From the NCBI GenBank assembly GCA_035524355.1, contig DATKPA010000037.1:18723-82722 (forward strand): a stretch of 64,000 bases of DNA, written 5' to 3'. The position numbers and the translations under genes are program-made. Under the pieces are notes generated by a model. The model made no database searches and had not been told where the DNA came from. It saw only the letters and a program-made list of their open reading frames with translations. The stretch comes from Phycisphaerae bacterium. Its GTDB lineage: Bacteria > Planctomycetota > Phycisphaerae > WQYP01. This document shows positions 26,526 to 60,828 of this stretch, one piece after another (position 1 is the first letter of the stretch; each line of letters opens with the position of its first letter).

Positions 26526-26552
26526 CCGCCGGCCTGACGGTATACTTCGCGC

Positions 26553-35318: not shown

Positions 35319-37607
35319 ATGCCGATTGCGCCGACGTTTCCAGGGGTGTACGTTCAGGAGTTGTCGAGCGGCGTACACACGATCACGGGCGTGAGCACGT
35401 CGGTGACGGCGTTTGTGGGCATTGCGCAGCGTGGGCCGATCGAGAAGCCGGTGCATTTGCTGAGTTTCACCGATTTTGAGCGGAACTTTGGGGGGTTGAG
35501 CCGCAGTTCGGACATGAGTTACGCAGTGAGCCAGTTTTTTTTGAATGGGGGGAGCGAAGCGTACGCGGTGCGCATTGCGAACAATCCGACGTCAGCGAGC
35601 CTCGCCTTGAAGAATAAGACTGGAGAGGTCGTGCTCACGCTGACTGCGCAGGACGAAGGGTCAGCGGGGAACGATGTGTTCGTGACGGTAGATTACGGCG
35701 TTCAAAATTCGGAAGCGAACTTTAATCTGACGCTCACGCGTAAGCCGAAGGAAGACCCATCAAACGAGACGGTGGAGGCGTGGCTGAATCTTTCGATGAA
35801 CATCAACGATGCGCGTTATGTGGGGACGATTCTGCAGGATTCGGTGCTGGTAACGGCGGCAGTGACGCTTCCGGCGGCGGTCGCCGCGGGGACGGGCCAG
35901 ACGGAGAGCGGGGATCTTTCGAATTCGGGGCCGCTGAACAAGCTCATTGATGACACCCACAACAGGCTGGGAATCGCGCTAAACGGGGATGATCCAGTGA
36001 CGGTAGTGCTCGATCCGGTCGCGGAGGACGATCTGGGGAAACTGGCGGCGGGGATTCAGAAGAATCTGCAGGATGCGCTTGGGGCGGCGAATGTGAAGGT
36101 GGAAGCCGACACAAGCGACAACGAAAAGCGTCTTGTGATTACATCGCTTAAGGCGGGGGAGTCATCGACGGTTCGGATCTCCGCCGGGGTGACGCAGGAC
36201 GTGACGGCGCGCCTGCAACTGGGGGTGATGGGGGGTACGGACAAGGACGCGGTGGCGGTGGCAAGGCCATTGGAGACGCCCCTTCATGGGACGGTAACGA
36301 GCGGGGTGATTGCGAATGCGGACCTCGATCAGACGCCAAGCGCCAAGAAGAGCATGAAGGTGGTGCTCGACGGCATGCTGGCGGATATTGAATTATCGGG
36401 GGCGGACATACCGGCAGGGAACCTTCCGGATCGTTTGAAAGCGGCGGCGCAGATGATTCAGAATGCCGTCGTGGAGGCAGGCAAAGCGAACTTTGCGAAC
36501 GTCGATTCGTTCAAGTGGTTTACGGCGGAAGCGGACGGTGGCGCGGGCACACTCATTCTGCGGTCTGGTACGCGGGGCAGCGGCTCGACGATAGAGATTC
36601 GACCGGGAAGCGACGGTTTATCGAGTGCGCTCAAGTTGACTGCCGCAGATGGGGCGGAGGTGAAGTTGGCGAAGGCGCAGGACGCGCCATTGAGCGGGGG
36701 CAGCGAGTTGGAAGTGGACATGAAGCAACCGTACAGCGCGTTTATCGGTGATCGTTCGAAGCACGAGGGGATATACGCGCTGGAGGAAGTGGATCTGTTC
36801 AATCTGATGGTGCTTGCCGGGGTATCAGACCCGGGCGTGCTGAGTGATGCGGTGGCGTACTGCCAGGAGAGGCGGGCGTTTCTGATCGTGGACAGTCCAG
36901 TGAACCAGACGATCGACGAGATGCAAACACTGGTCCGGAGCGCGAAACTGCCGAAGAGCAATTATGGCGCGGTTTACTATCCGTGGATCGGCATTGCGGA
37001 TCCACTCCAGGGGGGGCGGCTGCGGACGGTACCGCCGAGCGGGACGATTGCGGGGGTTTACGCGCGGACGGACAGTACGCGCGGGGTGTGGAAGGCGCCA
37101 GCGGGGATCGAGGCGTCGCTTGCAGGGGTGCAGAAGGTGGAAAGGCCGATGACGAATCCCGAAAACGGGATTCTGAATCCGCGGGGAGTGAACTGCATCC
37201 GGAACTTTCCGGTGTTTGGTGCGGTGGCATGGGGAGCGCGGACGCTGCAGGGGGACGACCAGTTCACGAGCGAATGGAAGTACGTGCCAGTGCGAAGGCT
37301 GGCGCTTTATCTGGAAGAGAGTCTTTATCGGGGGACGCAGTGGGTGGTTTTCGAGCCCAACGACGCGCCATTGTGGGCACAGATCCGGCTGAACATCAAT
37401 GCGTTCATGCAGGGACTTTTCCGGCAGGGTGCGTTTGCCGGTCAAACGCCGAAGGATGCGTATTTTGTGAGGTGCGACAGCACGACGACGACGCAGAATG
37501 ATGTGGATAAGGGGGTGGTGAACATAGTCGTCGGTTTTGCGCCGCTAAAACCGGCGGAATTCGTGATCATCTCGTTTCAGCAGATGGCGGGGCAGGTTCA
37601 GACCTGA
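35319..37607 (+). CDS. contractile tail sheath protein (eCIS sheath)
   Basis: 762 aa; N-terminal …FPGVYVQE… and C-terminal …GAVYYPWIGIADP…GVYARTDSTRGVWKAPAG…NCIRNFPVFGAVAWGARTL… are the conserved sheath blocks; RBS AAGGGAGGG upstream. Confidence 0.85.
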   Translation: MPIAPTFPGVYVQELSSGVHTITGVSTSVTAFVGIAQRGPIEKPVHLLSFTDFERNFGGLSRSSDMSYAVSQFFLNGGSEAYAVRIANNPTSASLALKNKTGEVVLTLTAQDEGSAGNDVFVTVDYGVQNSEANFNLTLTRKPKEDPSNETVEAWLNLSMNINDARYVGTILQDSVLVTAAVTLPAAVAAGTGQTESGDLSNSGPLNKLIDDTHNRLGIALNGDDPVTVVLDPVAEDDLGKLAAGIQKNLQDALGAANVKVEADTSDNEKRLVITSLKAGESSTVRISAGVTQDVTARLQLGVMGGTDKDAVAVARPLETPLHGTVTSGVIANADLDQTPSAKKSMKVVLDGMLADIELSGADIPAGNLPDRLKAAAQMIQNAVVEAGKANFANVDSFKWFTAEADGGAGTLILRSGTRGSGSTIEIRPGSDGLSSALKLTAADGAEVKLAKAQDAPLSGGSELEVDMKQPYSAFIGDRSKHEGIYALEEVDLFNLMVLAGVSDPGVLSDAVAYCQERRAFLIVDSPVNQTIDEMQTLVRSAKLPKSNYGAVYYPWIGIADPLQGGRLRTVPPSGTIAGVYARTDSTRGVWKAPAGIEASLAGVQKVERPMTNPENGILNPRGVNCIRNFPVFGAVAWGARTLQGDDQFTSEWKYVPVRRLALYLEESLYRGTQWVVFEPNDAPLWAQIRLNINAFMQGLFRQGAFAGQTPKDAYFVRCDSTTTTQNDVDKGVVNIVVGFAPLKPAEFVIISFQQMAGQVQT

Positions 37608-37634
37608 CAGGGCGTCCTTTCTTACGGTGAAAAC

Positions 37635-38162
37635 ATGGCCAAGTTTACTGTGAATGCCGCACGTCTTGATCCTTACAAGAACTTCAAATTCCGCGTGAAG
37701 TGGGACGGAAAATACGTTGCCGGGGTGAGCAAGGTGACGGCGCTGAAGAGGACGACGGAGGTTGTGAAGCATCGGGAGGGGGGCGACCCGAGCAGCAGCC
37801 ACAAGTCACCGGGTCGTACGGAATATGAACCGATCACGATGGAGCGGGGAGTGACGCACGATACAGAATTCGAGCGTTGGGCGAACAAAGTATGGAACTG
37901 GGGGAACGGGCTGGGGCAGGAGGTTTCGCTCAAGGATTTCCGGAAGGACATCATGATCGAGATTTACAACGAGGCGGGACAACTTGCGCTGGCGTACAAG
38001 GTGTATCGTTGCTGGGTATCGGAATTTCAGGCGGAGGCGGATCTGGACGCCAATGCGAATGCGACGCTGATACAGTCGATCAAGTTGGAGAACGAAGGTT
38101 GGGAGCGGGACTATGAAGTCCCGGAGCCTGCGGAGCCCAGCTTCAGCGAGCCGGCGGCTTGA
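37635..38162 (+). CDS. contractile tail tube protein (T4 gp19-like / eCIS tube)
   Basis: 175 aa; …RLDPYKNFKFRVKWDGKYVAGVSKVTAL… signature of gp19-family tube proteins. Confidence 0.8.
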   Translation: MAKFTVNAARLDPYKNFKFRVKWDGKYVAGVSKVTALKRTTEVVKHREGGDPSSSHKSPGRTEYEPITMERGVTHDTEFERWANKVWNWGNGLGQEVSLKDFRKDIMIEIYNEAGQLALAYKVYRCWVSEFQAEADLDANANATLIQSIKLENEGWERDYEVPEPAEPSFSEPAA

Positions 38163-38183
38163 ACGGGATAAGCGGGTTGAACG

Positions 38184-38930
38184 ATGCGGACACCAAGCGC
38201 GACTGAATTGTTGTGCGCCTGGGAGAGAGCGCTCTCCAGGCCAGCGGCACTGCGTGGGATTGCGGTGCTGGAAAGTTGCTGTCCCGGGACGGACGGGGAG
38301 GAGCTGGCGCGCCTGCCGATCGGGCAGCGCGATGCGAGGTTGCTGGAATTGCGTTCCATCACGTTTGGGCCGAGTGTGCCATGCATTGCGAAATGCGGAT
38401 TCTGCGGTGAATCGCTCGACGTGGAGTTCGGCCTGGAGGAGATACGGCAGCGGGCGCCAGCGTTGGAGGCGGGCGGGGTCGGGGCGCTGAGGGTAGAGGC
38501 TGAGGGGTGGGAGGTACGGGCGCGGCTGCCGAATTCACTGGATTTGGAGGCAGCGGCAGGGGCACGAGATGCGGAAGAGGCCAAAGGTATTCTGCTGTCA
38601 CGATGCGTGGAATCGGTGGCGGCACCGGACGGGCAGACATCGCCGCTGGAGGCGTTGCCCGCGCAGATTATTGCCGCGATTTCGGATCGCATGTCGGAGG
38701 CGGATCCGCAGGGCGATGTACGGCTGGAATTGAACTGCCCGGAATGCGGTGGCGAAGGCGTTTTTGTTTTCGACATCGGCACATATCTGTGGGAGGAACT
38801 GCAGGCGTTCGCAAAGAGTCTCATGGGTGAGGTGCACGAGCTGGCGCACGCCTATTCGTGGTCGGAATCCGACATTCTCAACATGAGCGCGCAACGGCGG
38901 TCGTATTACCTGGAGATGATCGGCGCATGA
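38184..38930 (+). CDS. eCIS-associated hypothetical protein, Cys-rich (putative zinc-ribbon)
   Basis: 248 aa; Cys clusters ESCCPG, CIAKCGFCG, NCPECGG; no family recognised. Confidence 0.4.
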   Translation: MRTPSATELLCAWERALSRPAALRGIAVLESCCPGTDGEELARLPIGQRDARLLELRSITFGPSVPCIAKCGFCGESLDVEFGLEEIRQRAPALEAGGVGALRVEAEGWEVRARLPNSLDLEAAAGARDAEEAKGILLSRCVESVAAPDGQTSPLEALPAQIIAAISDRMSEADPQGDVRLELNCPECGGEGVFVFDIGTYLWEELQAFAKSLMGEVHELAHAYSWSESDILNMSAQRRSYYLEMIGA

Positions 38931-39733
38931 GCGGATTCCTGGATCAACTTGCGAACCGGGCGATCGGGACACCGATGGCGGTTCGGCCGAGATTGCGGCT
39001 GCGGTATGAGCGGAAGTCGCCGATGGCGGCGGCGCTGGAGGTGGCGGATGCGGAGATTGATGCTCCGGTTCGGGGTTCGCGGAGAGCAGTCGCCTCCGTC
39101 CGTGCGCAATCGGACTCGGCGCAGGTTACGAGCAGATCGGCGGAGGAGGAGCCGCCATCGCGAGCGCGTTCGCATTTTCCTGCGGCGGCATCGACTCGGG
39201 ATGAGCAAGTGATGCCGGTTCGTCATCCAACAATTCCGGAGCCGGCGCCGGCCGCGCGTTCCAGAACCGTTGCGGCGGACGCGAAGCCGATGGAGGGCCG
39301 GTCAGAGCAGGAGATGGATGAAGGGGAAGTCCGCCGGACGCGCCTTCGCATTATCGAGAAGGTTCATGACATGGCAGAGCAAGGGGATGCCAATAGACAT
39401 GGGGAAACGGGGGGCCGGGAAAAGGGGGAGCCGGCAGTATCGGCGCCGCCGGCGGTGACGGAGGTGTATCACTCGCCGATGGTGCAGAACCTTGGGTCCC
39501 AGATCGGATCGAATAGGCGGGAGCAGGAGGTCATGGGTACGTTCGCAGTTCCACGGCCGAATGGAGAGCGGCTGCCGCCACCGCAACAGCCCTCGGTACA
39601 TGTCACGATCGGCCAGGTGGAGATCCGCGCGATCGCGTCATCGCCGCCGAGCGCAGCGGAGCCGCCAGTGCCAGCGTCTTCGCGGCATTCTCTGGACAGG
39701 TATTTGAGCCGCCGGCGGGAGGGGAAGCGATGA
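38927..39733 (+). CDS. eCIS-associated hypothetical protein, largely low-complexity
   Basis: 268 aa from MSGFLDQLANRAIGTP…; ATGA overlap with previous stop; Ala/Arg/Pro/Glu-rich, conserved-looking C-terminus …SVHVTIGQVEIRA…. Confidence 0.4.
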   Translation: MSGFLDQLANRAIGTPMAVRPRLRLRYERKSPMAAALEVADAEIDAPVRGSRRAVASVRAQSDSAQVTSRSAEEEPPSRARSHFPAAASTRDEQVMPVRHPTIPEPAPAARSRTVAADAKPMEGRSEQEMDEGEVRRTRLRIIEKVHDMAEQGDANRHGETGGREKGEPAVSAPPAVTEVYHSPMVQNLGSQIGSNRREQEVMGTFAVPRPNGERLPPPQQPSVHVTIGQVEIRAIASSPPSAAEPPVPASSRHSLDRYLSRRREGKR

Positions 39734-41103
39734 GCACTGCAGCAGCGATCGCCGCCGTGACTGCTTCCATTCAGAATCTGCTGAATGACGGGCTTCAGAA
39801 GGCGCGTGGGCTGGGGATAGTCGCGGCGGACGCGAAAGTGACATCGGTCGCGCCGGACCGACTGGGGGAAAACCCTTCGTCGAGCCTTGTCCTGTTTTTG
39901 TATGACGTATCACCAAACACGGGGTGGGCGAACCAACGACTTCCGAGCCGCGATACGGGAGGAAGCCGCATCGCCAATCCCTATTTAGCGCTCGACCTGT
40001 GCTACATGCTGACGGCGTATGGCAATGTGGATTGCGAGGCGGAGTTGTTGCTGGGTCATGCGATGCAGGCGCTGCACGAGACGCCGGGACTGACGCGGGA
40101 TTTCATTCGCACAGTGCTCGATCCGGGACCGCCCGATGGGGCTGGAAACCCATTGCCGCAAGTATTCCGGACGGGCGCGGTCAATCTGGCGGAACAGATT
40201 GAGCTGATCAAGATCACCCCGAAGTATTTGAGCATCGACGATCTGTCCAAGATCTGGGCCAGTCTGCAATGTCACTATCGGCCGAGCACGGCGTACCAGG
40301 TGACGGTGGTGCTGATCGAAGCGGCGAATCCGGTCGGAAATGCCCCGCCGGTGCTGCGCATCGGGGCGCTCGATCGTGGTCCTGTTGTCCAGGCGAACAT
40401 GCTGCCGCCATTTCCGACCTTGATTGCAGTGGTGCCACCGGCGGGCCAAGCGGCGGCGCCAATCAGCGGCAAGGTGAGTTTTTTCGGGCATCATCTTGCG
40501 GGGACAGGACATCGTGTGGTTCTGCGCAATCCGCAACTCGATGTCACGATCGCTCTGGATGGAGGCGCATTGAATGTGACCAAGCCGGGACTGAGCCCGA
40601 GCGATCTCGCAGCGAACGCACTTTTGCGGTTTGCGGACACGCGCATAGACGCCGACCTGAGCAAGGTTGCAGCGGGCACCTGGCGGGCAGGCGTGTACAG
40701 CGTCAGTATAGAGCTGACGCCAAATGGATCGAGCGAGGCGCGAGCGACGAATTCGATGCCGCTGGCGATTGCACCCTCCTTCGCGACGAGCGGTCCGGAT
40801 AAGCCGGTGGTCGTCAAGGGGCCGAGCAACCTGCTGAGCATCACGCTCACCACATCGCCGATGATCGCGCCGCGGCAAGGGGCGAGCGTCATTCTGGGGT
40901 CGCAGGAAATCCCGATGAGTGATATCGCGGCTCCGACGAACAAGCCGGTATTCCAAGGCGTCGTGCCGTCGGACATGCTGGGCGGGCCGCAGGATTATCT
41001 CGCGCGGCTGCGGGTGGCGGGCGTGGAAAGCCAGTACATCCGTTATTTCGACAAACCGATACCGCCGGAATTCGACCCCACACAGCGGATCACGATCCCA
41101 TGA
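39730..41103 (+). CDS. DUF4255 (Pvc16/Afp16-like) tail terminator/cap protein with long C-terminal extension
   Basis: 457 aa; …SSLVLFLYDVSPNTGWANQ…NPYLALDLCYMLTAYG…AELLLGHAMQALHETP… matches Pvc16_N pattern; ATGA coupling with flanking genes. Confidence 0.7.
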   Translation: MSTAAAIAAVTASIQNLLNDGLQKARGLGIVAADAKVTSVAPDRLGENPSSSLVLFLYDVSPNTGWANQRLPSRDTGGSRIANPYLALDLCYMLTAYGNVDCEAELLLGHAMQALHETPGLTRDFIRTVLDPGPPDGAGNPLPQVFRTGAVNLAEQIELIKITPKYLSIDDLSKIWASLQCHYRPSTAYQVTVVLIEAANPVGNAPPVLRIGALDRGPVVQANMLPPFPTLIAVVPPAGQAAAPISGKVSFFGHHLAGTGHRVVLRNPQLDVTIALDGGALNVTKPGLSPSDLAANALLRFADTRIDADLSKVAAGTWRAGVYSVSIELTPNGSSEARATNSMPLAIAPSFATSGPDKPVVVKGPSNLLSITLTTSPMIAPRQGASVILGSQEIPMSDIAAPTNKPVFQGVVPSDMLGGPQDYLARLRVAGVESQYIRYFDKPIPPEFDPTQRITIP

Positions 41104-43052
41104 TGCGAGAGGCAGCTTCAATTTCTTCGGACGTAGATCAGCAAGCACTGATGGTTGCGCTCGATCGGATTCGAGGGTTCATCGAGGCGTATTGTGCAAA
41201 GCATGCGGAGGCGAAGGGAGAGGAAGATCCGTCCGAGGATCACCAGGAAATCGCCATCGAGGCCGAGTCGGCGCTGGCCCGGTTGTGCGAGGCGTTTCGG
41301 CTGTCGGAATTTGAGCGGGATATTCTGCTTTTGTGCGTCGGTTCTGATCTCGACGGGCGATTCGCGAGGGCGGTCGCTGCAACAGGTGGACGGCCTTCCT
41401 TCGGCATGGCGCTGACGGTGCTGCCGAAGGCGCATTGGAGCGCGATTGCACCGTCCGGGCCGCTGCGATATTGGCGATTGATTGAGCCAAGCGAGGGGGA
41501 TGCGCTGACCTGTCGGCCGCTGAGAGTAGATGAGCGTGTGCTGCACTTTCTCATGGGCGTCGCCAGCCCTGACGAAAGGTTGCGCGGCGTAATGCGAGCG
41601 CTTAAACCTCCGAAGCTCGTGGCTCCGTCGCAGAGGAAGGTTGTGGCGCGGGTACTGGAGGCGTGGCGGGGCGCTGAAAGCGGTCGCCCACTCATTGAAT
41701 TGCATGGACGACCTGCTGATGCACGAGTCATCGCAGCGGCGGCGGCGGCGGCAGCGGGATGGACGGTTCACCAGATCGACAGTGCATCGCTTACGGCGAG
41801 TGGCATGGGGTTTCAGAATGCCGCGAGATTGATCGAGCGCGAGGCGGTGCTCTCGAATAGGGTGCCGCTGATCGACGCCACCGACGTTGACGCCTCCAAC
41901 ATCGAACGGCTCAATGCGATGGTGGAGGCACTGGAATGTCCGACGTTTCTCTGCACGACGGATTCGATCAGCAACATCAATCGTTCAGTGATCCGGATCG
42001 AAGCGCCGGCGGTTTCTCCGCAGGAGATTTCGGCCGTATGGCGGGGTTCGCTTGGGCCGCTGGCGAAGGGATTGAATGGGGAACTGGATCGTGTATCGCG
42101 GCAGTTTCCGTTGCAGCCCGACGAGATTGCGGAGGTTGCGGCATCGCTATCCGGCCCGGGAATGGAGGATTGCACCCATGTGGAACGGGCGGCAGTCCTG
42201 TGGAAGGCGTGCCGGGGGCTGGGACGCGATCGATTCGGGTCGCTTGCACATCGGATTGAACCTGGTGCCCGGTGGGGCGATCTGGTGTTACCGGAAGTGC
42301 AGCTCCGAACATTGCAGCAGATGGCGGCACATGTGCGGAATCGGTGGAAGGTGTATGAGACGTGGGGATTTGCGGGCCGCGGCAGCCGGGGTCTCGGAAT
42401 CAGCGCGTTGTTTTCAGGGCCGAGCGGGGCGGGAAAGACGATGGCGGCGGAAGTGCTGGGTTCGGAACTGGAGCTCGATCTGTTTCGAATCGACCTGAGC
42501 GCGGTCTGCAGCAAGTACATAGGGGAGACGGAGAAGAATCTGAAGCGGATATTCGACGCGGCAGAGGCGAGCAGCGCGATTCTGCTGTTTGACGAGGCGG
42601 ACGCGCTGTTTGGAAAGCGGAGCGAGATCAAGGACAGTCATGATCGCTACGCGAACACTGAAGTGGCCTATCTGCTTCAGCGCATGGAAAGCTTCTGTGG
42701 GCGCGGACTGGCGATATTGACGACGAATGCGGCGCACGGGGCACTCGATCAGGCATTCTGGCGGCGGCTGCGGTTTTCGGTTTCGTTTCCGTTTCCGGAT
42801 GCGGCCGCGCGCCGGGAGATCTGGGTGCGAGTGTTTCCGCCGACAGCGCCGACCGAGTCATTGGATTTCGACAAGCTGAGCCAGCTCAATGTATCGGGCG
42901 CAAGCATTCGGAACATTGCCCTCAATGCGGCGTTCCTGAGCGCGGAGGCGGGCGAGCCGATTTGCGTGAAGCACATTCTTCAGGCGGCGCATGCGGAGTG
43001 TGCCAAGCTGGAGAAGCCCCTGGGCCGGAATGAAATAGCGGGGTGGGTATGA
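41100..43052 (+). CDS. eCIS AAA+ ATPase (Afp15/Pvc15-like)
   Basis: 650 aa; C-terminal AAA module Walker A FSGPSGAGKTMAAE, Walker B ILLFDEADALF, sensor/arginine finger TTNAAHGALDQAFWRR; large N-terminal domain of unknown function. Confidence 0.85.
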   Translation: MMREAASISSDVDQQALMVALDRIRGFIEAYCAKHAEAKGEEDPSEDHQEIAIEAESALARLCEAFRLSEFERDILLLCVGSDLDGRFARAVAATGGRPSFGMALTVLPKAHWSAIAPSGPLRYWRLIEPSEGDALTCRPLRVDERVLHFLMGVASPDERLRGVMRALKPPKLVAPSQRKVVARVLEAWRGAESGRPLIELHGRPADARVIAAAAAAAAGWTVHQIDSASLTASGMGFQNAARLIEREAVLSNRVPLIDATDVDASNIERLNAMVEALECPTFLCTTDSISNINRSVIRIEAPAVSPQEISAVWRGSLGPLAKGLNGELDRVSRQFPLQPDEIAEVAASLSGPGMEDCTHVERAAVLWKACRGLGRDRFGSLAHRIEPGARWGDLVLPEVQLRTLQQMAAHVRNRWKVYETWGFAGRGSRGLGISALFSGPSGAGKTMAAEVLGSELELDLFRIDLSAVCSKYIGETEKNLKRIFDAAEASSAILLFDEADALFGKRSEIKDSHDRYANTEVAYLLQRMESFCGRGLAILTTNAAHGALDQAFWRRLRFSVSFPFPDAAARREIWVRVFPPTAPTESLDFDKLSQLNVSGASIRNIALNAAFLSAEAGEPICVKHILQAAHAECAKLEKPLGRNEIAGWV

Positions 43053-43360
43053 AGAGCGGCGGGAAGTTGCCATCGATTCACCTGCGGATTGAAAGGGTGA
43101 CGGTTCAGGGCATTCCGATGACGTCACTCGGGGCGGCGCGGCTGCAAGCGTCCATCGCCCGGGAGTTGAGCGGACTTCTCGCGCGGGGACGGCCGCTCCC
43201 TTCCGCGCCGGGGAAGCAGCCGCAGATTCGGCTGACGGCCGGTGCGGGTCCGGCGGAAATAGGACGGCAGATTGCGCGGGAGCTGTTCAGTCGCATCGAT
43301 CCGCGGATACAAAGCGCCATCAACCGGGCTCGCCAAATCAACGGGGAGGGCACGGAATGA
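43043..43360 (+). CDS. small hypothetical protein (105 aa) in eCIS operon
   Basis: overlaps ATPase stop by 10 nt and next gene by ATGA; no motif. Confidence 0.35.
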   Translation: MGMKSGGKLPSIHLRIERVTVQGIPMTSLGAARLQASIARELSGLLARGRPLPSAPGKQPQIRLTAGAGPAEIGRQIARELFSRIDPRIQSAINRARQINGEGTE

Positions 43361-46029
43361 GCAGGACGGCCACGCCCAAGCAAAAGAAGAACACTCCCGC
43401 CGTGGAGGTGAATACGCCGCAGAAGCACAGAGTAAGTGCGGTCAATGAGTTCTCAGGTCGAGGCGGCACGATTCAATCCTTCAACGTGGACGCGCTGCGG
43501 CTTCCTCCCACAAAAGGTCCCAACGCGCTGTCCCTCTACCAATCCCTGGCCAAAGGGGGCGGCCTGCAAGCGATACTCAAGGTGAACGATGTGCGAACCA
43601 AAGCGGCGCTCTGGCAGGAACGGGCGAACACGTCTGAGCTGCGCGCTCGCTGGCTGCAACGCATCGGCTGGCCCGACAGCGACGTAACGGACCAACTCTG
43701 GCAAAAGGCGGGTGGAGGTCCGGCGTTTCCCACGCTGAACGGTGAGACGCTGCAAATGGACCACATCGTCGAGTTGCAGGTTGGCGGCAACAACACGATC
43801 GAGAATATCCAGATCCTCGAACCAGGCAACAATCGAGACAGCGGCAGTGCGATCAAGAATCAGGTATTCGGGCTGGCAGAGGAGATTCTCCAGACTGAAA
43901 CCCTTTCCGACGGCGATGCGGATGAGATTCAACTCTCCTTCTCCGCTGCAGTGATGAGCGAAGCGCCTGTCCAATCGAAGGCGCTTCTCGTCGAACAAAA
44001 GGCCAAAACCATCAAGCCCCCGAAGGGATCGATGACGGCGCAAGTTACCGAGCCATATCCCATCCGAGCCGGCGGGGCCACAACGGATGTGCAAGCGCCT
44101 CCTGCGTTCGCAAAGGACAGCAAAGCAGCGCCGGTTCCGATTCTCAACGATGCCGCCAACAAACCGGCCGCGGAGCTCGTGCCCGGCTTGCTGCTGGAGA
44201 CGCTTCGGCACAACAAGTCGGCCGACGAGATCGGCGCCCGTATTGATGATCGCAATAAGACGCGCCTGCCGGTCACACTCAACGAGAAGCGCGGCGACGA
44301 TCTCGTACTGGCCGTCAACAAAACGACGCGGGTGCTGAAACAAACTTCGGCCGCAAAGGAGATTTCGTTCACGTATCCCTACCTCAGTCCAGGGGCGATT
44401 ACGAGTCTCAGGTCAGATCCGGACGGAGGCCTGAGTTTTGCGGGTTACATTGAGACAAAAATACCGTTTCTCGGAAGGCTGGATGTCGAATATTCGCGTG
44501 ACGAATTCCGACTGGTGAAAGATTTGAGCCAGACGCTCAAATCGCCGCTCCCCGGAACCCGGATCACCGAAGCCAAGTTGGCGCTGACATTGAGTCCGGA
44601 GTTGAAACCGTCGGGCTATTTCGCGTTCGCAATCGGGCCACAAAACAGGGAGTTCCTCGAAGCCCGAGTGGAAGTCTCCCGGAACGAATCAGGGCTCGTC
44701 GCCACTGGCACGATCCACGCGTTCATCCCCGGGGTGGACAAGGCCGGGGGCAACATCACGTACAGCAATGGGAACTGGTCGGGCCAGGCGACGCTGCAGG
44801 CAGACCAGCTCAAATCCAAGCTGAAGTACGTCCGCAGCGGCCAGATCACGGTGGCGTTTGACCAGGGACAAATCTCTCCCAGCGGCGAAATCGTCTTTGA
44901 TCTGCCGAGGACTGACGGCATTACTGCGAAGGTGTCGAAGCAGAACGATCGCTGGGTGTTTGATGGCGACGGCACGATCAAGATTCCACGGCTCGGCGAC
45001 CTCGGGATGCACGTCACTTATGACGGCAAATCCTTTGTCAGTAGAATCCGCCCCGGGCCGACGTTTACGCTCCTTAACGTTCAGGGCCAACTCGAAGAAC
45101 TCACGTATCGCGACGGTGCCGTCAGAGGCAAGGGATCGCTCACATACAAACGAGGCAAGGCCAGCGGAAAACTCGCTCTCGAACTAAATGAAGACGGCCG
45201 CTTTACAGGCAGCGGCGAGCTCGTTTATCAGGTGAATGATAATCTTGCCGTAACCGGCACGGCAGCATTGGACAAGGACGAAAAGCTTCAGGTTAAAGGG
45301 AAACTCACCTACAACCGAGCGATTGAGATTCCACACACGAAGTTCGGCGGAGAAAAGGCGCTTTTCGACGCGGGAATAACGATTCCGATACCAGGTCTTT
45401 CGTTGGGGCCCGCCGTGGGGCTGAAGGCGCGGATTGAAGGATCGCTCTCAGCGGGCTTCAGCATTGGACCGGCGCAGATCCGCAAGATCGAAATCGGAGC
45501 GGCTTTTAATCCGCTTGAGCCCAACACGAATATTGAAATTACCGGTGCTGCCGAGTTCTTCATGCCTGCCAGCGCTCATGTTGCCGGAGCGATCCGCGCC
45601 GGAATAATGCTGGACGCATTCATCGGTGATATCACGGGCGGCCTGGAGGTTCGCGCGCGGGCGGATCTTGATGGATCATTCACCGCGCCGGTCAACGTGT
45701 CCTGCACGCCAAAGCGTTTTTCGCTTGATGCGCAATTCGAATTAATGCTGAACCTCGCGCTCCTCCTCGGCATCGACGCGTGGCTGCGCGCCAGGGCGGG
45801 CATTGCCCCATTCGACGTGGAGACCGAAAAGCGATGGACGCTGGCCGAGAGGAAGATCGACAGCGGCCTGAAATTCGGGGTGCGGGCGCCGATCCACTAC
45901 GCGTCGGATGAAGCCTTTATCCCCCCTTCATGGGACAGCATCGAATTCATCAAGCCCACGATCGACTTCAGCAAACTGCTGGATCGCGCGATTTCGTCCG
46001 CACAGCCAATACAGAAAGCGGGAGGGTAG
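43357..46029 (+). CDS. large eCIS-encoded protein with N-terminal HNH-like (beta-beta-alpha-Me) nuclease motif and Gly-rich beta C-terminal region; candidate payload or atypical tail-length protein
   Basis: 890 aa; …LQMDHIVELQVGGNNTIENIQILEPGNNRDSG… (res ~134-163) resembles HNH/EndoVII motif (DH…N…N); occupies the position of the tape measure in P2-like gene order; C-terminal 600 aa not helical-looking. Confidence 0.4.
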   Translation: MSRTATPKQKKNTPAVEVNTPQKHRVSAVNEFSGRGGTIQSFNVDALRLPPTKGPNALSLYQSLAKGGGLQAILKVNDVRTKAALWQERANTSELRARWLQRIGWPDSDVTDQLWQKAGGGPAFPTLNGETLQMDHIVELQVGGNNTIENIQILEPGNNRDSGSAIKNQVFGLAEEILQTETLSDGDADEIQLSFSAAVMSEAPVQSKALLVEQKAKTIKPPKGSMTAQVTEPYPIRAGGATTDVQAPPAFAKDSKAAPVPILNDAANKPAAELVPGLLLETLRHNKSADEIGARIDDRNKTRLPVTLNEKRGDDLVLAVNKTTRVLKQTSAAKEISFTYPYLSPGAITSLRSDPDGGLSFAGYIETKIPFLGRLDVEYSRDEFRLVKDLSQTLKSPLPGTRITEAKLALTLSPELKPSGYFAFAIGPQNREFLEARVEVSRNESGLVATGTIHAFIPGVDKAGGNITYSNGNWSGQATLQADQLKSKLKYVRSGQITVAFDQGQISPSGEIVFDLPRTDGITAKVSKQNDRWVFDGDGTIKIPRLGDLGMHVTYDGKSFVSRIRPGPTFTLLNVQGQLEELTYRDGAVRGKGSLTYKRGKASGKLALELNEDGRFTGSGELVYQVNDNLAVTGTAALDKDEKLQVKGKLTYNRAIEIPHTKFGGEKALFDAGITIPIPGLSLGPAVGLKARIEGSLSAGFSIGPAQIRKIEIGAAFNPLEPNTNIEITGAAEFFMPASAHVAGAIRAGIMLDAFIGDITGGLEVRARADLDGSFTAPVNVSCTPKRFSLDAQFELMLNLALLLGIDAWLRARAGIAPFDVETEKRWTLAERKIDSGLKFGVRAPIHYASDEAFIPPSWDSIEFIKPTIDFSKLLDRAISSAQPIQKAGG

Positions 46030-46032
46030 CGA

Positions 46033-46695
46033 ATGGGCTCGGCTCCAACATCTCCGCGCGTACAGAAGGGGGCGCTGATCGGCTTCGATGCGGCCAATCC
46101 GCTGGCGAGCGTTGTTGTGTTTCAGTACAACCCGGAGACTGTCACCCGCACGCTCGCCGCCCAGACCGCAGGGACGCCCCCTCCACACAGCACAACTGCG
46201 CCGTCCGACGCCCAACGGCTGATCGGTCCCCCCAATGAGACGATCAAGCTCGACGTGGTCATAGACGCGACCGACCAACTCGAGAAAGGGGACGCCACGG
46301 CAACCAGCGTGGGCATATATCCGCAGCTTTCCGCACTGGAAATGCTTCTGTATCCCAAGAGCACCCTCGTCATTGCCAACGAAGTGCTGTTGCGCGCGGG
46401 GGTGATCGAGGTGATTCCCGCGGAAGCGCCGCTTGCGATTCTCGTGTGGGGGCCCAAACGTGTGCTGCCGGTGCGGGTCAACGAGTTTTCGATCACGGAG
46501 GAAATGTTCGACCCCAACCTGAATCCGATCCAGGCGAAAGTGTCCCTGTCGATGCGCGTGCTGAACTATCGCGATCTCGGCCTTCTGAGCGTCGGCGGCG
46601 GTCTGTTCATGGCGCATCAAATGGCGAAAGAGGGTTTGGCGACGCTGAACGGCGCGAACAACATCGGGCCGATAGCAAGCGCCATTGGAGTATAG
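46033..46695 (+). CDS. tube-like / tube-initiator baseplate protein (gp48/gp54- or Pvc5/7-like), tentative
   Basis: 220 aa; …LASVVVFQYNPETVTRTLAAQ… N-terminal block reminiscent of tube-fold proteins; position between putative length determinant and hub. Confidence 0.35.
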   Translation: MGSAPTSPRVQKGALIGFDAANPLASVVVFQYNPETVTRTLAAQTAGTPPPHSTTAPSDAQRLIGPPNETIKLDVVIDATDQLEKGDATATSVGIYPQLSALEMLLYPKSTLVIANEVLLRAGVIEVIPAEAPLAILVWGPKRVLPVRVNEFSITEEMFDPNLNPIQAKVSLSMRVLNYRDLGLLSVGGGLFMAHQMAKEGLATLNGANNIGPIASAIGV

Positions 46696-46697
46696 AC

Positions 46698-47003
46698 ATG
46701 TTCGATCCGACGAGCCGGTACAGCAAAATGGATATCAAAACGATCGCCGTAATGGGTGCAGACGGGGAACCTCGGGCTATCCGATATATAGCCCGCCGAT
46801 TTGTGCCGCAGCCGGGCGTCAATCCGCAGATGGTGAAGCATAAAGTCGCGGAGCAAGACCGCATCGACAATGTGACGGCGAAATACCTGGGCGATCCGAC
46901 GCAATTCTGGAGGGTGGCCGATGCAAACGCCGTGACGACGCGCCCCGAAGAACTGACCAGCGAAATAAACAGCGTCATTGTGATTCCGATACCCGTGATG
47001 TGA
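46698..47003 (+). CDS. LysM-like tail protein (P2 gpX-like)
   Basis: 101 aa from MFDPTSRY…; …HKVAEQDRIDNVTAKYLGDPTQFWRVADANAV… LysM-type motif. Confidence 0.55.
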   Translation: MFDPTSRYSKMDIKTIAVMGADGEPRAIRYIARRFVPQPGVNPQMVKHKVAEQDRIDNVTAKYLGDPTQFWRVADANAVTTRPEELTSEINSVIVIPIPVM

Positions 47004-47012
47004 GGGCAACAG

Positions 47013-48131
47013 GTGCTTGAGAGCTTGTTTGGAATTCGGCTGCTGTTGTGGATCGGACAGACGGTGCCGCTGCCCGCGTCGTACGAAGCGGCCACGTCCC
47101 TGGCAGGAGTGGAAGTGACGAACGATTCATCCAAGGCGGACGGGTTCAAGCTGACGTTCGCGGTCGGGCGAAACGGCGTTGGCGATTACGGATTACTGCA
47201 AAGCGGCGAATTGGCGCCGATGAACCGCGTGATCGTCGGGGTGATCTTCGGGGTGGTGCCGGAGGTTCTGATCGACGGAATCATCACGCAGGTGCACCTC
47301 GATCCGAGCAGCACTCCGGGGCAGAGCACTCTGACCGTCATGGGCCAGGAACTTGCCGTGCTTATGGACCTGGAAGAGAAGAATCTGAGCTATGAAAACC
47401 AGCCGGATTCGGTGATTGCGATGCGCGTACTTACGGGATATGCCCAATACGGCATCATTCCGCAGCCGTCGGCAACAACGGACGTGCCCATCCAGGTGGA
47501 ACGGATACCGCGGCAGCAGGAGACGGATTTGAAGTTTCTCCTGCGATTGGCGCAGCGGAACGGATTTGTGTTTTACCTCGAACCGGAAACGGTGGGGATG
47601 AACAGAGCGTACTGGGGGCCGGAGAACCGGCTGGGCATTCCGCAGCCGGCACTCTCAATGGACATGGGCGCTTCCACAAATGTGGCGAGCCTTGCATTTT
47701 CAGATGATGCCTTGGCCGCGACGGCCACGAAGGGGACTGTGATTGAGCCGATCACGCGGACATCGCTGCCGATCCCGCCGCTCCCGTCTCTGAGGATTCC
47801 ACCGCTGGTTACCTCCCCGGCGCGGGCCTATCGAACGACTCTTCAGCGGGAGACTGCGAACCAGAGTCCGACGACTGCGGCGACGCGATCGCTTGCCAGC
47901 ACGACAAACGCGCCCGACTCGGCCACCGCTCAGGGCGAGGCGGACGGCGTTCGGTACGGTTCAGCGCTTCGGGCGCGAAGGCTCGTGGGCGTGCGCGGCG
48001 CGGGGTCCAGCCACGACGGCTTGTGGTACGTCAAAGCGGTAACGCACACGATTTCCCGCGGCCAGTACACGCAGCGATTTTCGCTGAGTCGTGAAGGGAT
48101 TGGAACGCTCACACCGGTGGTGCTGCCATGA
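47013..48131 (+). CDS. baseplate hub protein (P2 late control gene D / gp27-VgrG-like)
   Basis: 372 aa; C-terminal …GVRYGSALRARRLVGVRGAGSSHDGLWYVKAVTHTISRGQYTQRFSLSREG… typical of gpD family. Confidence 0.6.
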   Translation: MLESLFGIRLLLWIGQTVPLPASYEAATSLAGVEVTNDSSKADGFKLTFAVGRNGVGDYGLLQSGELAPMNRVIVGVIFGVVPEVLIDGIITQVHLDPSSTPGQSTLTVMGQELAVLMDLEEKNLSYENQPDSVIAMRVLTGYAQYGIIPQPSATTDVPIQVERIPRQQETDLKFLLRLAQRNGFVFYLEPETVGMNRAYWGPENRLGIPQPALSMDMGASTNVASLAFSDDALAATATKGTVIEPITRTSLPIPPLPSLRIPPLVTSPARAYRTTLQRETANQSPTTAATRSLASTTNAPDSATAQGEADGVRYGSALRARRLVGVRGAGSSHDGLWYVKAVTHTISRGQYTQRFSLSREGIGTLTPVVLP

Positions 48132-48628
48132 GTGACGGATTTTTCGGAAAATTTCGGGGTGTCGTGACGGACATTGAGGATCCGCTTCAAATTGGACGCG
48201 TCCGCGCACGGGTGCCGGACGTTATGGGAGACCAGGAGAGCGGGTGGGCGATGCCGTGTTTCGCGTTCGGCGGCCAGGGCATGGGGTTGTTCGCGCTGCC
48301 GAAGGTTGGTGCAGGGGTGTGGATCGAATTTGAGCACGGTGATCCGGATTATCCGATCTGGAGCGGCTGCTGGTATGGGTCGGTCAGCGACGTGCCCCCG
48401 GAGTTGTTGACGCCCCCGTACAAAAAAGTGCTGCTTAAAACTGCGGATGGGACGAGCATCTTACTGGACGATACGCCGGGTGTCGGAGGAATTACGTTGG
48501 AAACGTCGGGGGGGCAGAAGATCGTGGTTTCCCAGACGGGAATAGAGATCAACAACGGGATGGGCGCAGCGATCAAGCTGACGGCCGCGCAGGTTTCTGT
48601 CAACGATGGCGCTTTGGATGTGATGTGA
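48128..48628 (+). CDS. baseplate spike protein (P2 gpV / gp5 N-terminal OB-fold)
   Basis: 166 aa; …FRGVVTDIEDPLQIGRVRARVP…ESGWAMPCFAFGGQGMGLFALPKVGAGVWIEFEHGDPDYPIWSGCW… gpV signature. Confidence 0.8.
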   Translation: MSDGFFGKFRGVVTDIEDPLQIGRVRARVPDVMGDQESGWAMPCFAFGGQGMGLFALPKVGAGVWIEFEHGDPDYPIWSGCWYGSVSDVPPELLTPPYKKVLLKTADGTSILLDDTPGVGGITLETSGGQKIVVSQTGIEINNGMGAAIKLTAAQVSVNDGALDVM

Positions 48629-48652
48629 TTCGACCCATCAATGGAGCCTCAA

Positions 48653-48970
48653 ATGCCCGGATTTGTACTTCATCAAGGCGCGACGGTGCTGTGCATGCAT
48701 GGCGGGCAGGCGCAGCCGACCGTGCCGAACCCCCGCGTGCGTGTCGCCGGCCAGCCGACGGTGCAGCAGCCGAACCCCTACATCGTCGCCGGTTGCCCGT
48801 TCGCGCCGGGCGCTCCCAGCCCGTGTGTGACCGCCCAATGGACCGTGGCGGCCATGCGGGTGAAATCCGGGGGTTTGCCCCTGCTTCTCCAGGACAGCCA
48901 GGCGGTTTGCGCTCCCAATGGCACCGGCGTCACCATCGTGGCTCTCCAGACGAGGGTGAAAGCACAGTGA
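48653..48970 (+). CDS. DUF4280 / PAAR-like spike-tip protein
   Basis: ~105 aa; …GATVLCMHGGQAQPTV…AGCPFAPGAPSPCVTAQW…AVCAPNGTGVTIV… conserved Cys pattern of DUF4280. Confidence 0.6.
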   Translation: MPGFVLHQGATVLCMHGGQAQPTVPNPRVRVAGQPTVQQPNPYIVAGCPFAPGAPSPCVTAQWTVAAMRVKSGGLPLLLQDSQAVCAPNGTGVTIVALQTRVKAQ

Positions 48971-49326
48971 ATATCGCCTTCCCATACCAGTTCAACACCT
49001 TCTATCGAACCGCCGAGGCGACCGATGACCAGCACATCATCGATCTTCTGGAACAACTCCTTTTCACCTCCCCCGGCGAGCGGGTGAACCGCCCCAGCTT
49101 TGGCAGCGGGTTGCTTCAGATTCTGTTCGGCCCGACCAGCCCCGAGCTTGCGGCGGCCACCCAACTGATGATGCAGGGCGCCATTCAGCAGTACATGGGC
49201 AGCCTGATCCATGTTGATTCCATTGATGTGGTCAGCGAAGAGGCGACGGTGCAGGTCACGGTTCGATACCTCAATCGAAGGACGCAGCAGCGGCAGATCG
49301 CGCAGTTGACGAGGAGCGCACCGTGA
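48967..49326 (+). CDS. gp25-like baseplate wedge protein (GPW/lysozyme-like)
   Basis: 119 aa, GTG start overlapping previous stop; …TSPGERVNRPSFGSGL…IDVVSEEATVQVTVRY… gp25/GPW blocks. Confidence 0.75.
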   Translation: MNIAFPYQFNTFYRTAEATDDQHIIDLLEQLLFTSPGERVNRPSFGSGLLQILFGPTSPELAAATQLMMQGAIQQYMGSLIHVDSIDVVSEEATVQVTVRYLNRRTQQRQIAQLTRSAP

Positions 49327-59900: not shown

Positions 59901-60534
59901 CGACCAGTCCCCCGCCGTGCAGGACCTCACCGACACCATGAAATCGCGAGTCCGATTGATGTCCAAATCATTGTCGCAACTCAATGCCAACCAGTCTCAA
60001 CCTTCCGCCCTGGACCTCGCCCGCACCGCGGCCTTTCTGCCTTCCTACGGAATCGCTCTTCAGTTGGCCGATTCTCCCACACGCCTGACCATCGAAAACT
60101 CCATACTCCTCGGCGAACTCAGCATCCTTGGCGCATCCATCCCCTCAATCAGCACGGAATCCCTCCCGGCCCTTCAAAAACTGATAGCCCGCAATCCCAA
60201 AAATAAAATCGGCGGAGAATGGCACCTGCGAGGCAACGATGTCACGCGCATCACCATCCTCCAGCAGTCGGGCAACGCTACACTGAGCTCCGTCCCATTC
60301 CACCTCTGGTTCCGCGAGAACGCGCTCTGGTCCAACAACAATGTGCTCGTCGCGTATCACCACGACTTTTCAGCCAACGCCTACCACGGCCAGGGCGACG
60401 CCGGCTGGGTCGTCGGTAACGATGCCACCTACGTCGCGAACTGGGCAACCAACGACTTCCGACTGTTCCATCTGTGCGGCAACACGCTCGCCACCGCAGC
60501 CGTAGCAAATGTTCGTCTGAACATCGTCGTTTAG
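56941..60534 (+). CDS. putative tail fibre / receptor-binding protein with Ig-like and right-handed beta-helix regions
   Basis: 1197 aa; conserved N-term MHGDFTRDTFNPKRHYQQVLLQQGRVLLDANFNEF; central Ig-like segments; C-terminal …IRGCGPGTRLRLQG…FRGCDIEAAD…IRDCTL… beta-helix-like repeats. Confidence 0.5.
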   Translation: MHGDFTRDTFNPKRHYQQVLLQQGRVLLDANFNEFAALLAHRDQTTAADLIGDCGGPADRAAFRIFSDLNELTADEKQHLADLHIATPLANGDFFISAGHYYVDGILCENESAIPFTNQPDRFNVQALPPGNYMLYADVFQRHLTELEAPSLREPALGGPDSATRAKTVWQIKADPIGPLNNPDVCSTGTLDHLRDPRTARLTADTIKPPADDDPCTLPPEAGYTGLENQLYRVEIHQPGKALDAANAPGVAVTLPAADAPQNVITIAAAVPWQKGQPIEIFPAKPGAPMRGQLAWLTDVAGTTLTINIPIDPAFVAADQPMARQVAATWKWSRENGSVVTTIEKIDGDKITVSSIGPDAKLQFAVDSWVEILDDALELEGLPGQLAQIKDIAGNVITLMSPANPLAATPANVDPARFPKLRRWEAIGAVKFIADPPSNWLPLESGIQIRFADADYRTGHYWQIPARTATAESPDGDIQWPTQNSLRVPRPPRGITHHLCKLAIVTVAAGSPTSLSSDCRCLFPALSATPRLFYLSGDGQEVMPVPTNAANLYKLPHPLIVGVANAQCLPAAATVRFTVTSGAGRVAAQGAAPAGASVDLPITSNGQAACDFHLDGTNWTQQVSAALLDQNGNAITPLIFFNANLSVAAQVAFDPGSCSGMQGRNTVQDAISQLASMARIDIFGGDGQDANPGDTLAKPIQVSISSACGPVAGAKISFQAEGNGALNGGGSGAAVTSGPDGLAACSWTPDPALPTQQLTATLVQTPANQPIEKPSQVIFTANIRQAGADGCCCVSIGPRGDFPTIEAALAKLLKTTPDICLCLMAGDHLLQKPLELTKPANVHIRGCGPGTRLRLQGAGIAARRLNSFALEDMQVLISRTNDPFVFLNCKSVLFRGCDIEAADKPIVLLRIAGADDLLIRDCTLQSLFPFWQSPIEGFDVTKVPGLTFPPPLDAITSQTYADAVEQIAQSLIKAPPAALKSYASLWGDQSPAVQDLTDTMKSRVRLMSKSLSQLNANQSQPSALDLARTAAFLPSYGIALQLADSPTRLTIENSILLGELSILGASIPSISTESLPALQKLIARNPKNKIGGEWHLRGNDVTRITILQQSGNATLSSVPFHLWFRENALWSNNNVLVAYHHDFSANAYHGQGDAGWVVGNDATYVANWATNDFRLFHLCGNTLATAAVANVRLNIVV

Positions 60535-60809
60535 ACGCGCACAATGTTGGCCTGCGGATTTGGCGCCCGCCCGTCTCTGATGAGGCAGTCGTACGCCTGC
60601 ATGCGGTGATCGAGTGCCAGTTGGAGAAAATATCGCGGGGTATCGATGCCCCTCTCTGCAGCGCGGGTCCGAGTTCCATCTACCCCAAGAACCAACTTCG
60701 TCTCCCATGGCGCGAAATGTCCCCGTGCCCGATCAGGGCACAGGTTGGGGACAGCCGTGGTAATGGCAGCGGGGGAAACGCGGTAAGTGTAGAAAAGAAG
60801 GCCCCTTGG

Positions 60810-60823: not shown

Positions 60824-60828
60824 GAAAC

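Follow-up and report, generated by a model that had tools for sequence, protein, structure and literature searches.

Described contractile injection systems and the Phycisphaerae locus

The described systems closest to the gene cluster reported here are contractile injection systems (CISs). The cluster lies at positions 35319-60534 of a 64,000-nucleotide stretch of contig DATKPA010000037.1 (hereafter the window), which comes from a Phycisphaerae (Planctomycetota) metagenome-assembled genome (MAG). The archaeon Halogeometricum borinquense has a plasmid-borne clade IIa system (the "archaeal T6SS", after the type VI secretion system; PDB 9EZM) that is anchored through a protein with six transmembrane (TM) segments, works while attached to the cytoplasmic membrane and kills cells that it touches (PMC11566945). 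Subtype IId systems of Streptomyces and of Chloroflexota/Deinococcota are free in the cytoplasm, and those of the S. coelicolor type (CIS-Sc and relatives; 8BKY/9GTP; PMC10066040) act there and need the membrane protein CisA. In lineage I, Afp of Serratia entomophila and PVC of Photorhabdus have three sheath paralogs and an Afp14 tape measure, with the cap and ATPase at the 3′ end of the cluster and toxins after the fiber. AlgoCIS of Algoriphagus (7ADZ/7AEB) and the Anabaena tCIS (7B5H) belong to another lineage, in which LysM is fused to a tube-fold protein and a crown and extra clade-specific parts are present. To our knowledge, no bacterial member of the cluster type described here has been studied experimentally.

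We conclude, with a probability of roughly 0.88, that 35319-60534 encodes an Afp/PVC-related CIS of lineage II whose gene content matches subtype IIa. The region is one intact chromosomal operon in which 18 genes (g1 to g18) run end to end on the + strand, with a coding density of 99.8%, a largest gap of 27 nt, and 4-nt ATGA or GTGA start-stop overlaps at 10 of the 17 gene junctions. The first-pass annotation had described 18 codirectional genes joined mostly by such overlaps, and its count of 18 is exact once the mechanical list of open reading frames (ORFs) is corrected at three places. Two starts move, that of g4 from 38858 to 38927 (an ATGA overlap onto g3) and that of g10 from 46446 to 46698. 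The listed ORF 48625-49326 (233 codons) is an artifact with a long out-of-frame N-terminus; it splits into two genes in different frames, the DUF4280-like g13 (48641-48970) and the gp25 gene g14 (48967-49326), joined by a GTGA overlap. Gene calls on identical public contigs match ours for the genes covered there, except that the g6 start is placed later.

Related loci were collected by scanning one genome per species (GTDB representatives) with a search seeded by an alignment of the g8 protein, which gave 53 loci, 36 of them spanning at least 21 kb. Among these full-length loci, 31 are colinear with the window, keeping at least 13 of its genes in the same order from the sheath to the gpI-like protein. 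The gene order had been called unusual, and it is instead the norm for this clade. Across the related loci the median identity is 79% in the tube protein, 54% in the sheath protein and 35-48% in the others, and among the hosts are Pseudomonas fluorescens, Paraburkholderia, Massilia, Acidobacteriota, Nitrospiraceae, Myxococcales, Verrucomicrobiota and Fimbriimonadales. For the sheath we detected 675 homologs, mostly of 740-790 aa and approximately 50% identical, in many phyla and including one from a Methanotrichaceae archaeon; this degree of identity across bacteria and an archaeon fits horizontal spread. The cluster type is already listed in dbeCIS/eCIStem-type catalogs and known from many genome sequences of Pseudomonas and Paraburkholderia; what the present locus contributes is a Planctomycetota (Phycisphaerae) host for a lineage II system that has been transferred widely.

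Protein families were assigned by profile searches of the cluster proteins against Pfam with its curated cut-offs, NCBIfam, PHROGs and PADLOC. The contractile sheath g1 (35319-37607; 762 aa) is of the Cis2/Afp2-4 type, carries a big insertion at approximately residues 100-475, and matches PF04984 (E 2e-10) and PF17482 (E 7e-12) over residues 490-754. Its best PDB matches, each as two stretches, are 9EZM (280 bits), the clade IIa protein of H. borinquense, and 8BKY (274 bits), the Cis2 of S. coelicolor. The inner tube protein g2 (37635-38162; 175 aa) is gp19/Hcp-like (PF06841, E 4.9e-44) and finds tCIS All3324 (8e-15) and the AlgoCIS tube (8e-14) in the PDB. The tail terminator or cap g5 (39730-41103; 457 aa) is an Afp16/Pvc16 protein with DUF4255 (PF14065 Pvc16_N, E 1.3e-42, residues 9-209) and a C-terminal extension of approximately 250 aa that has no family assignment; a PDB sequence search with the cap gave nothing. 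Directly after it, g6 (41100-43052; 650 aa) encodes an AAA+ ATPase of the Afp15/Pvc15 type (PF00004, E 2e-25) with a winged-helix domain (PF22977, E 8.6e-17), and a two-domain ATPase of this kind stands at the equivalent position in related loci. A DUF4255 cap with a dedicated AAA+ ATPase had been put forward as the hallmark pair of the extracellular CIS (eCIS) superfamily, and both members were recovered.

The cap and ATPase had also been placed directly after the tube; in fact, two genes intervene. The first, g3 (38184-38930; 248 aa), encodes a T4 gp51-like baseplate-hub assembly protein with a four-Cys zinc ribbon (PF12322, E 4.5e-14; PHROG 150 "baseplate hub", E 2e-10) and is found in 34 of the 36 related loci. 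The second, g4 (38927-39733; 268 aa), is clade-specific and has no match in Pfam, NCBIfam, PHROGs or PADLOC; a low-complexity middle rich in R, P and A separates conserved ends, which the ORFs at this position in 34 loci share as MSxFLxxLAxRA...PRLxSxFEP at the N-terminus and IGRIEVRA...SLxxYLxxR at the C-terminus. A second small clade-specific protein, g7 (43049-43360; 103 aa), likewise found no family in these four collections, and ORFs of 80-140 aa resembling it lie 3′ of the ATPase gene in most related loci with the common motif hxhxIxxLxLxG...ELxRLL. Both g4 and g7 fit the "subtype-specific genes without known domains" of Chen et al. (PMC6899500).

The baseplate block begins with g9 (46033-46695; 220 aa), a second tube-fold protein resembling Afp5/Cis5 (a baseplate-proximal tube or tube initiator; PF19266 CIS_tube, E 8.2e-8) that is found in 34 of the 36 loci. 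It is followed by g10 (46698-47003; 101 aa), a small gpX-like baseplate protein with no Pfam match; a profile of 17 orthologs searched against the PDB returned LysM proteins only (CEBiP, AlgoCIS 7AEB_M, Kbp and tCIS All3321), all at sub-threshold E-values of 0.2-0.7, so that a LysM protein is a plausible if weakly supported assignment. The putative gpD/gp27-like hub g11 (47013-48131; 372 aa) matches PF05954 GPD with E 2.3e-5 (24 bits, below the cut-off of 30), PHROG 52 tail protein with E 2.4e-10 and, weakly, the NCBIfam model VgrG_rel. The OB-fold spike of gpV/gp5 type is a separate gene, g12 (48128-48628; 166 aa; PF04717 Phage_base_V, E 2.7e-24), that overlaps g11 by ATGA. Its PAAR-like tip g13 (109 aa) matches DUF4280 (PF14107) with E 8.1e-5, at 23.6 bits below the cut-off of 26.3, and is present in 33 of the 36 loci at a median identity of 54%, and g14 (119 aa) is a gp25/gpW sheath-initiator wedge protein (PF04965, E 1.1e-13).

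Two Baseplate_J wedge proteins of the gp6/Afp11 type come next. The first, g15 (49323-51866; 847 aa), scores above the cut-off (PF04865, E 1.9e-5), with the baseplate J-like protein 9GTP (1.7e-14) as its best PDB match and T4 gp6 (1e-7) also found. The second, g16 (51863-54835; 990 aa), has a Baseplate_J match of 16 bits, below the cut-off, but is a paralog of g15 (BLASTP E 5e-19), and it carries an inserted lectin-type PA14 domain (PF07691, E 1.1e-27, residues 331-462). Because only 11 related loci have such an insert, it behaves like a swappable receptor-binding module. The wedge protein g17 (54832-56919; 695 aa), resembling gpI, Mu gp48, gp7 and Afp12, matches PF10076 with E 0.0027 (18 bits, below the cut-off of 37) and PHROG tail or baseplate wedge families with E 0.001-0.005, and is kept in 33 of the 36 loci. 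The last gene, g18 (56941-60534; 1197 aa), encodes a tail fiber with an N-terminal DUF6519 baseplate-attachment domain (PF20129, E 2.1e-70), which has been defined as the eCIS fiber attachment domain eBAP5 (PMC12923769).

The operon therefore holds the parts by which the eCIS superfamily is recognized: sheath and tube, DUF4255 cap and AAA+ ATPase, a gp27/gp5 spike with PAAR-like tip, gp25, Baseplate_J and a gpI/gp7-like protein. The profile searches sustain the earlier calls of sheath, tube, cap, ATPase, gpV spike, gp25, two Baseplate_J proteins and fiber. For the gpD, DUF4280, gpI and LysM calls the position and conservation of the genes agree with what had been proposed and the scores fall short; the GPD, DUF4280 and Mu gp48 matches lie below the curated cut-offs, yet the three genes stand in the expected order and are conserved in 33 of 36 loci. 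The cluster had also been called complete, which holds for its core, although no recognizable tape-measure protein and no DUF4157 domain occur in the window.

We compared this gene content with the rules of Chen 2019 (PMC6899500), under which two afp11 genes mark IIa and IIc, gp27 and gp5 as split ORFs mark IIa, IIb and IIc, a PAAR-like gene is missing only in IIb, divergent afp12/13 occur in IIa and IIb, and afp14 is absent throughout lineage II. Here g15 and g16 are two afp11 paralogs, afp8 is split into the gp27-like g11 and gp5-like g12, g13 supplies the PAAR-like afp10, the gpI-like g17 and DUF6519 fiber g18 correspond to divergent afp12/13, and no cluster protein matches afp14 or a tape measure in Pfam, NCBIfam or PHROGs. 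Comparison with the dbeCIS scheme, which had been proposed as a check, thus places the locus in lineage II with a gene content that fits subtype IIa, an assignment made by gene-content rules and not by Afp11 phylogeny.

Indirect support for the subtype comes from 9EZM, the clade IIa protein that is the best solved match of the sheath. Like the H. borinquense CIS (PMC11566945), the locus has two structural blocks around a cargo slot (which holds DUF4157 proteins in relatives), two Cis11 copies and no tape-measure homolog. It differs in being bacterial and chromosomal, in having no membrane protein in the operon, in its LysM-like (Cis6-type) gene, in a sheath that is approximately 190 aa longer, and in a single slot gene that lacks DUF4157. 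With CIS-Sc and its relatives it shares homologous sheath and Baseplate_J proteins, the cap and AAA+ ATPase, and lineage II membership, whereas in the IId systems afp11 is single, the VgrG-like afp8 is unsplit and afp12/13 are usually missing. Afp and PVC share with it the sheath, tube, Afp5-13-type baseplate order, Afp15 ATPase and Afp16 cap, but here there is one long sheath, the cap and ATPase come early, and neither an Afp14 nor toxin genes after the fiber are found. AlgoCIS and tCIS provide the best solved tube matches, and their baseplate LysM proteins are the CIS matches of the g10 profile; here the LysM-like protein is a separate gene, and the crown and extra clade-specific parts are absent. 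The tails of phages P2 and Mu resemble the locus in their V-W-J-I-H order, gpD-like hub and gpX-like LysM protein, while genes for a head, a tape measure or chaperone, and lysis are absent from the locus, and its DUF4255 cap comes with an AAA+ ATPase. The gpD and gpX genes of P2 do not adjoin V, and X-D directly before V is an Afp5-13/Mu-like arrangement. Of the P2 order X-D-V-W-J-I-H given in the first-pass annotation, V-W-J-I-H consequently matches P2 and the placement of X-D does not.

The cargo-slot protein g8

Between the ATPase block and the baseplate block, g8 (43357-46029; 890 aa) encodes a candidate for a cargo protein or for one in the tape-measure position. It ends 3 nt before the block of tube-fold, LysM and gpD genes and holds the equivalent position in 34 of the 36 loci. 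The protein consists of an N-terminal domain with an invariant HNH-like motif followed by a beta-rich domain of approximately 650 aa. Across 60 homologs, D135, H136, E139, Q141, G144, N150 and N159 are invariant, and HNH models cover the motif stretch weakly (Pfam E 0.01, PHROG E 0.002). No match was found in NCBIfam or PADLOC, and a g8 profile searched against PDB sequences gave nothing meaningful. In the predicted structural model the N-terminal domain is mixed alpha/beta and everything after it is all-beta. A Foldseek search of the full model against the PDB gave TM-scores of at most 0.13, to lipid-transfer proteins, LptD, porins and MACPF pores, and the modeled beta-rich domain may resemble outer-membrane barrels as a fold class, not by homology.

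The g8 protein differs from most of its family in lacking DUF4157, a domain that was reportedly proposed as an eCIS core domain by Geller in 2021. Among the g8 homologs listed, 62 of 66 carry PF13699 (DUF4157). Most of the best 150 cluster representatives of the family are 1050-1150 aa long and aligned from the DUF4157 region onward, and a handful start after DUF4157 as g8 does; relative to its homologs, g8 is without approximately 220 N-terminal residues, DUF4157 included. No PF13699 match occurs in any cluster protein, and tblastn with the DUF4157 regions of six homologs found no remnant anywhere in the 64-kb window. DUF4157 as a mark of an eCIS locus is accordingly absent here and present in the orthologous gene of relatives.

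We suggest that g8 is the most likely payload of the system, judging from its position. In every relative inspected, the slot between the ATPase and tube-like genes holds a g7-like gene and then at least one DUF4157 protein. The closest relative, L059, has one of 1153 aa, whereas L060 has two small ones and L057 has several. In the archaeal system, DUF4157 proteins of the "interspacing" cargo region are secreted in a CIS-dependent manner (PMC11566945), and in S. davawensis the DUF4157 nuclease effector Tme is encoded just 5′ of the baseplate genes and copurifies with spike proteins (PMC11126660). Because relatives keep DUF4157 proteins in it, the g7-g8 slot matches both the archaeal cargo region and the position of Tme, and g8 is the only candidate payload since no toxin genes lie 3′ of the fiber.

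The likeness to Tme is one of position, of a large ORF with a nuclease-type motif, and of a cluster type spread horizontally across distant phyla. Tme itself has 2247 aa, with an N-terminal DUF4157, TM helices, coiled coils and a C-terminal EndA-like nuclease, whereas g8 has 890 aa, none of these features, and its HNH-like motif at the N-terminal side. Moreover, g8 has no hydrophobic 19-mer scoring 1.6 or more, is beta-rich, shows no tape-measure match, and is shorter than both g18 (1197 aa) and g16 (990 aa).

Nothing in the locus would surprise a specialist, and its novelty is modest: a Phycisphaerae host, natural loss of DUF4157 from a cargo-slot protein, and an uncharacterized family architecture that joins an HNH motif to a beta-barrel-like domain. 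The locus is also compact, a lone operon of 25 kb in which just one gene is a cargo candidate, and suited to heterologous expression. It bears on how lineage II tail length is set without an Afp14-type tape measure, on the role of the common DUF4157-linked beta-rich proteins beside baseplate genes, and, as a copy that naturally lacks the domain, on whether DUF4157 is needed for loading.

In the Bacteroidetes and Kapaibacterium MAGs L010 and L012, the 10 kb to each side of a g8-family match at 10001-12660 contain nothing detectably homologous to the remaining CIS genes of the window. The g8 family may thus not be strictly tied to this cluster type, or may accompany a very divergent one.

Proposed assembly, site of action and alternative readings

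By analogy with the solved Afp, PVC, AlgoCIS, tCIS and Streptomyces structures, a mechanism can be proposed for the Afp/PVC-related machine. The baseplate would be formed by the hub g11, spike g12, tip g13, gp25 protein g14, J proteins g15 and g16 and gpI-like g17, together with the tube-fold initiator g9 and LysM-like g10. It would nucleate the g2 tube, around which the g1 sheath would assemble in its extended state, and g5 would cap the tail. The AAA+ ATPase g6 and gp51-like g3 may help in assembly or cargo loading. Firing would begin when the DUF6519 fiber g18 and the PA14 module of g16 touch a target, and contraction of the sheath would then drive the tube and spike through an envelope. 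The presumptive payload would be g8, with its HNH-like nuclease motif and big beta-barrel-like domain.

Several points weigh against the conclusion that the locus encodes such a system. The gpD, DUF4280, gpI and LysM assignments all lie below curated thresholds, and the subtype follows from gene content. The closest characterized relatives are not extracellular, as the 9EZM system is membrane-bound and the 8BKY system cytoplasmic, and the lineage II members characterized to date are likewise of one or the other kind. The locus has no tape-measure homolog that would explain how tail length is controlled. Two further points concern g8. DUF4157, regarded as the domain that holds cargo to the spike complex (PMC13277306), is missing from it. 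In addition, the median identity of g8 is 35%, compared with 40-42% for gpD and J, meaning that it evolves about as slowly as baseplate proteins.

Conserved in position and about as slow to change as the baseplate proteins, g8 would suit a structural part of the machine just as well as a toxin, and, given this conservation and the lack of an Afp14-type tape measure, it may act like a tape measure. We rejected the reading of g8 as a hypervariable polymorphic toxin and nothing else, as its position is kept and its sequence conserved about like that of baseplate proteins. With its low-complexity middle and conserved ends, g4 is another candidate length determinant. As a long shot, the g8 family could be a new class of CIS-delivered proteins that replace the missing tape measure: a beta-rich module of approximately 650 residues would lie in or under the tube and, after firing, enter the envelope of the target and form there a barrel-like passage for an exchangeable enzymatic head, here an HNH-type nuclease. 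If this were true, the Phycisphaerae copy would show that DUF4157 is dispensable for loading.

The Afp/PVC-related system proposed here could act in more than one place, and mode of action is not predictable from sequence (PMC12998442). We lean slightly toward release of the particles from the cell; the word "extracellular" is at this stage read from sequence and not established. The PA14 insert and eBAP5 fiber favor recognition of surface glycans on an external target. None of the 18 proteins has a predicted TM segment and no membrane gene is conserved beside the cluster, the neighbors differing among the related loci L003, L057, L059 and L060, which argues mildly against anchoring.

A cell-anchored, T6SS-like system is the strongest competitor, although we consider it unlikely at about half the weight given to release or a little less. 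The baseplate would then be attached to the cytoplasmic membrane of the producer from inside, and the machine would fire outward into a touching neighbor, as in clade IIa H. borinquense. The best solved sheath match is that of this very system, the gene content fits the same subtype, and both clusters have the two-subcluster layout with a central cargo slot and no tape-measure homolog. Against it stand the missing TM segments and membrane gene, and neither the PA14 lectin domain of the baseplate nor the fiber of 1197 aa would have an obvious ligand at the cytoplasmic face of the membrane. We set aside the NfeD-like and bestrophin-like membrane proteins encoded upstream as possible anchors, as related clusters have unrelated neighbors.

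Only a little less credible is a cytoplasmic system that fires inside its producer under stress, leading to regulated cell death or DNA release as in S. coelicolor, S. davawensis and Chloroflexota/Deinococcota. Among solved sheaths, the Cis2 of S. coelicolor is the second-best match, the best J match (9GTP) belongs to an entry whose sheath sequence is that of 8BKY, g8 stands where the Tme effector stands in S. davawensis, and the locus has no lysis or release genes. Its architecture, however, is not that of IId loci, which have one afp11, an unsplit afp8 and mostly no afp12/13, whereas the Phycisphaerae operon has two afp11, its spike genes are split, and it encodes a gpI-like protein and a large fiber. 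Unlike Tme, g8 has no TM helices or coiled coils, and the PA14 and fiber modules imply a target outside the cell.

The first-pass annotation had argued against a prophage, an R-type tailocin and a T6SS, and we agree. A defective prophage tail module or R-type tailocin would account for the phage-tail ancestry of all structural genes and for a tRNA-Ser gene 294 nt 3′ of the last gene, the kind of site where islands integrate. We regard it as effectively excluded. The Pvc16 cap and AAA+ ATPase pair is present, the operon is conserved intact in many phyla, and no att-like direct repeat links the tRNA gene to the upstream border of the cluster, where no integrase was found either. Pfam searches of the flanking ORFs across the 64-kb window, beyond which some 25 kb of the source contig were not read, matched no capsid, portal, terminase, integrase, holin, endolysin or Tss membrane-complex family, only housekeeping, defense and surface-protein genes; no tape measure or lysis cassette of the R-type tailocin or P2-like kind was found. 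Among 50,697 phage records, none covers at least 80% of the sheath, the best being 36% identical over 54% of the query. The parts list excludes a canonical T6SS, which has a two-part TssB/TssC sheath, ClpV, a TssJLM membrane complex and TssA/E/F/G/K: here the sheath is a single phage-type protein of 762 aa, no Tss family occurs in the cluster or flanks, and TM segments are lacking.

Borders and surroundings of the operon

The sheath gene is preceded by a gap of 450 bp. A scan for sigma-70 promoters and terminators in 34300-35500 gave nothing, the small ORFs 34963-35289 and 35192-35479 have no family match, and Rfam at gathering thresholds returned two tRNAs only and no leader RNA. In a related cluster with 52% sheath identity (L057/L058), a NusG paralog is encoded at 9434-9964 directly 5′ of the sheath gene, which suggests operon-specific antitermination there; no such paralog lies in the window's gap 5′ of the sheath. 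At the 3′ border, the terminator-like sites in 60300-61300 are only those of the tRNA and the next gene. The tRNA-Ser(GCT) gene occupies 60828-60917 on the - strand, with its 3′ end toward the cluster. The possibility of a tRNA-targeted island was pursued by seeking direct repeats between this gene and the upstream border over 33800-61400, and it was dropped, as only short repeats at chance level were found.

Although all 18 genes lie on the + strand, GC skew flips within the operon, from +0.26 at 36-38 kb to approximately -0.24 at 58-60 kb. This flip probably reflects amino acid composition, the late baseplate and fiber proteins being rich in Pro, Thr and Ala, and not strand or origin.

The upstream flank encodes a thioredoxin-reductase-like protein, an ABC ATPase, folD, tyrS, ribF, yebC, a DHH phosphoesterase, a PifA-like defense gene, tRNA-Ala, a DEAD helicase, rsmH, the NfeD-like and bestrophin-like proteins and a DUF2383 protein; downstream of the cluster are tRNA-Ser, HPPK and panC. 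The defense gene (22015-24264, - strand) encodes a 749-aa KAP-family P-loop NTPase whose match to the PADLOC PifA model runs from end to end (E 5.9e-84). The gene lies in the only low-GC patch of the window (GC 0.51 against approximately 0.61) and is probably a horizontally acquired abortive-infection gene. Between the ABC ATPase gene and folD, 2667-3212 (- strand) encodes a Uma2-family putative restriction endonuclease (PF05685, E 1e-30) that also matches the PADLOC candidate system PDC-S03.

Two further stretches concern surface-type proteins and overlapping reading frames. At 24723-26525 (+ strand) and 25029-27122 (- strand), two long ORFs overlap; a Laminin_G_3/ConA-like lectin domain (E 9.5e-23) was found in the + strand ORF and nothing in the other, so that the + strand ORF is probably the real gene. 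Finally, 17937-21509 (+ strand) encodes a 1190-aa protein rich in Thr, Ser and Asn with FKBP, CARDB and several Ig-like domains. The C-rich codons of this gene give rise to the extreme GC skew of approximately -0.54 at 18-22 kb, and it casts the long Gly/Glu-rich ORFs of the - strand as shadows.

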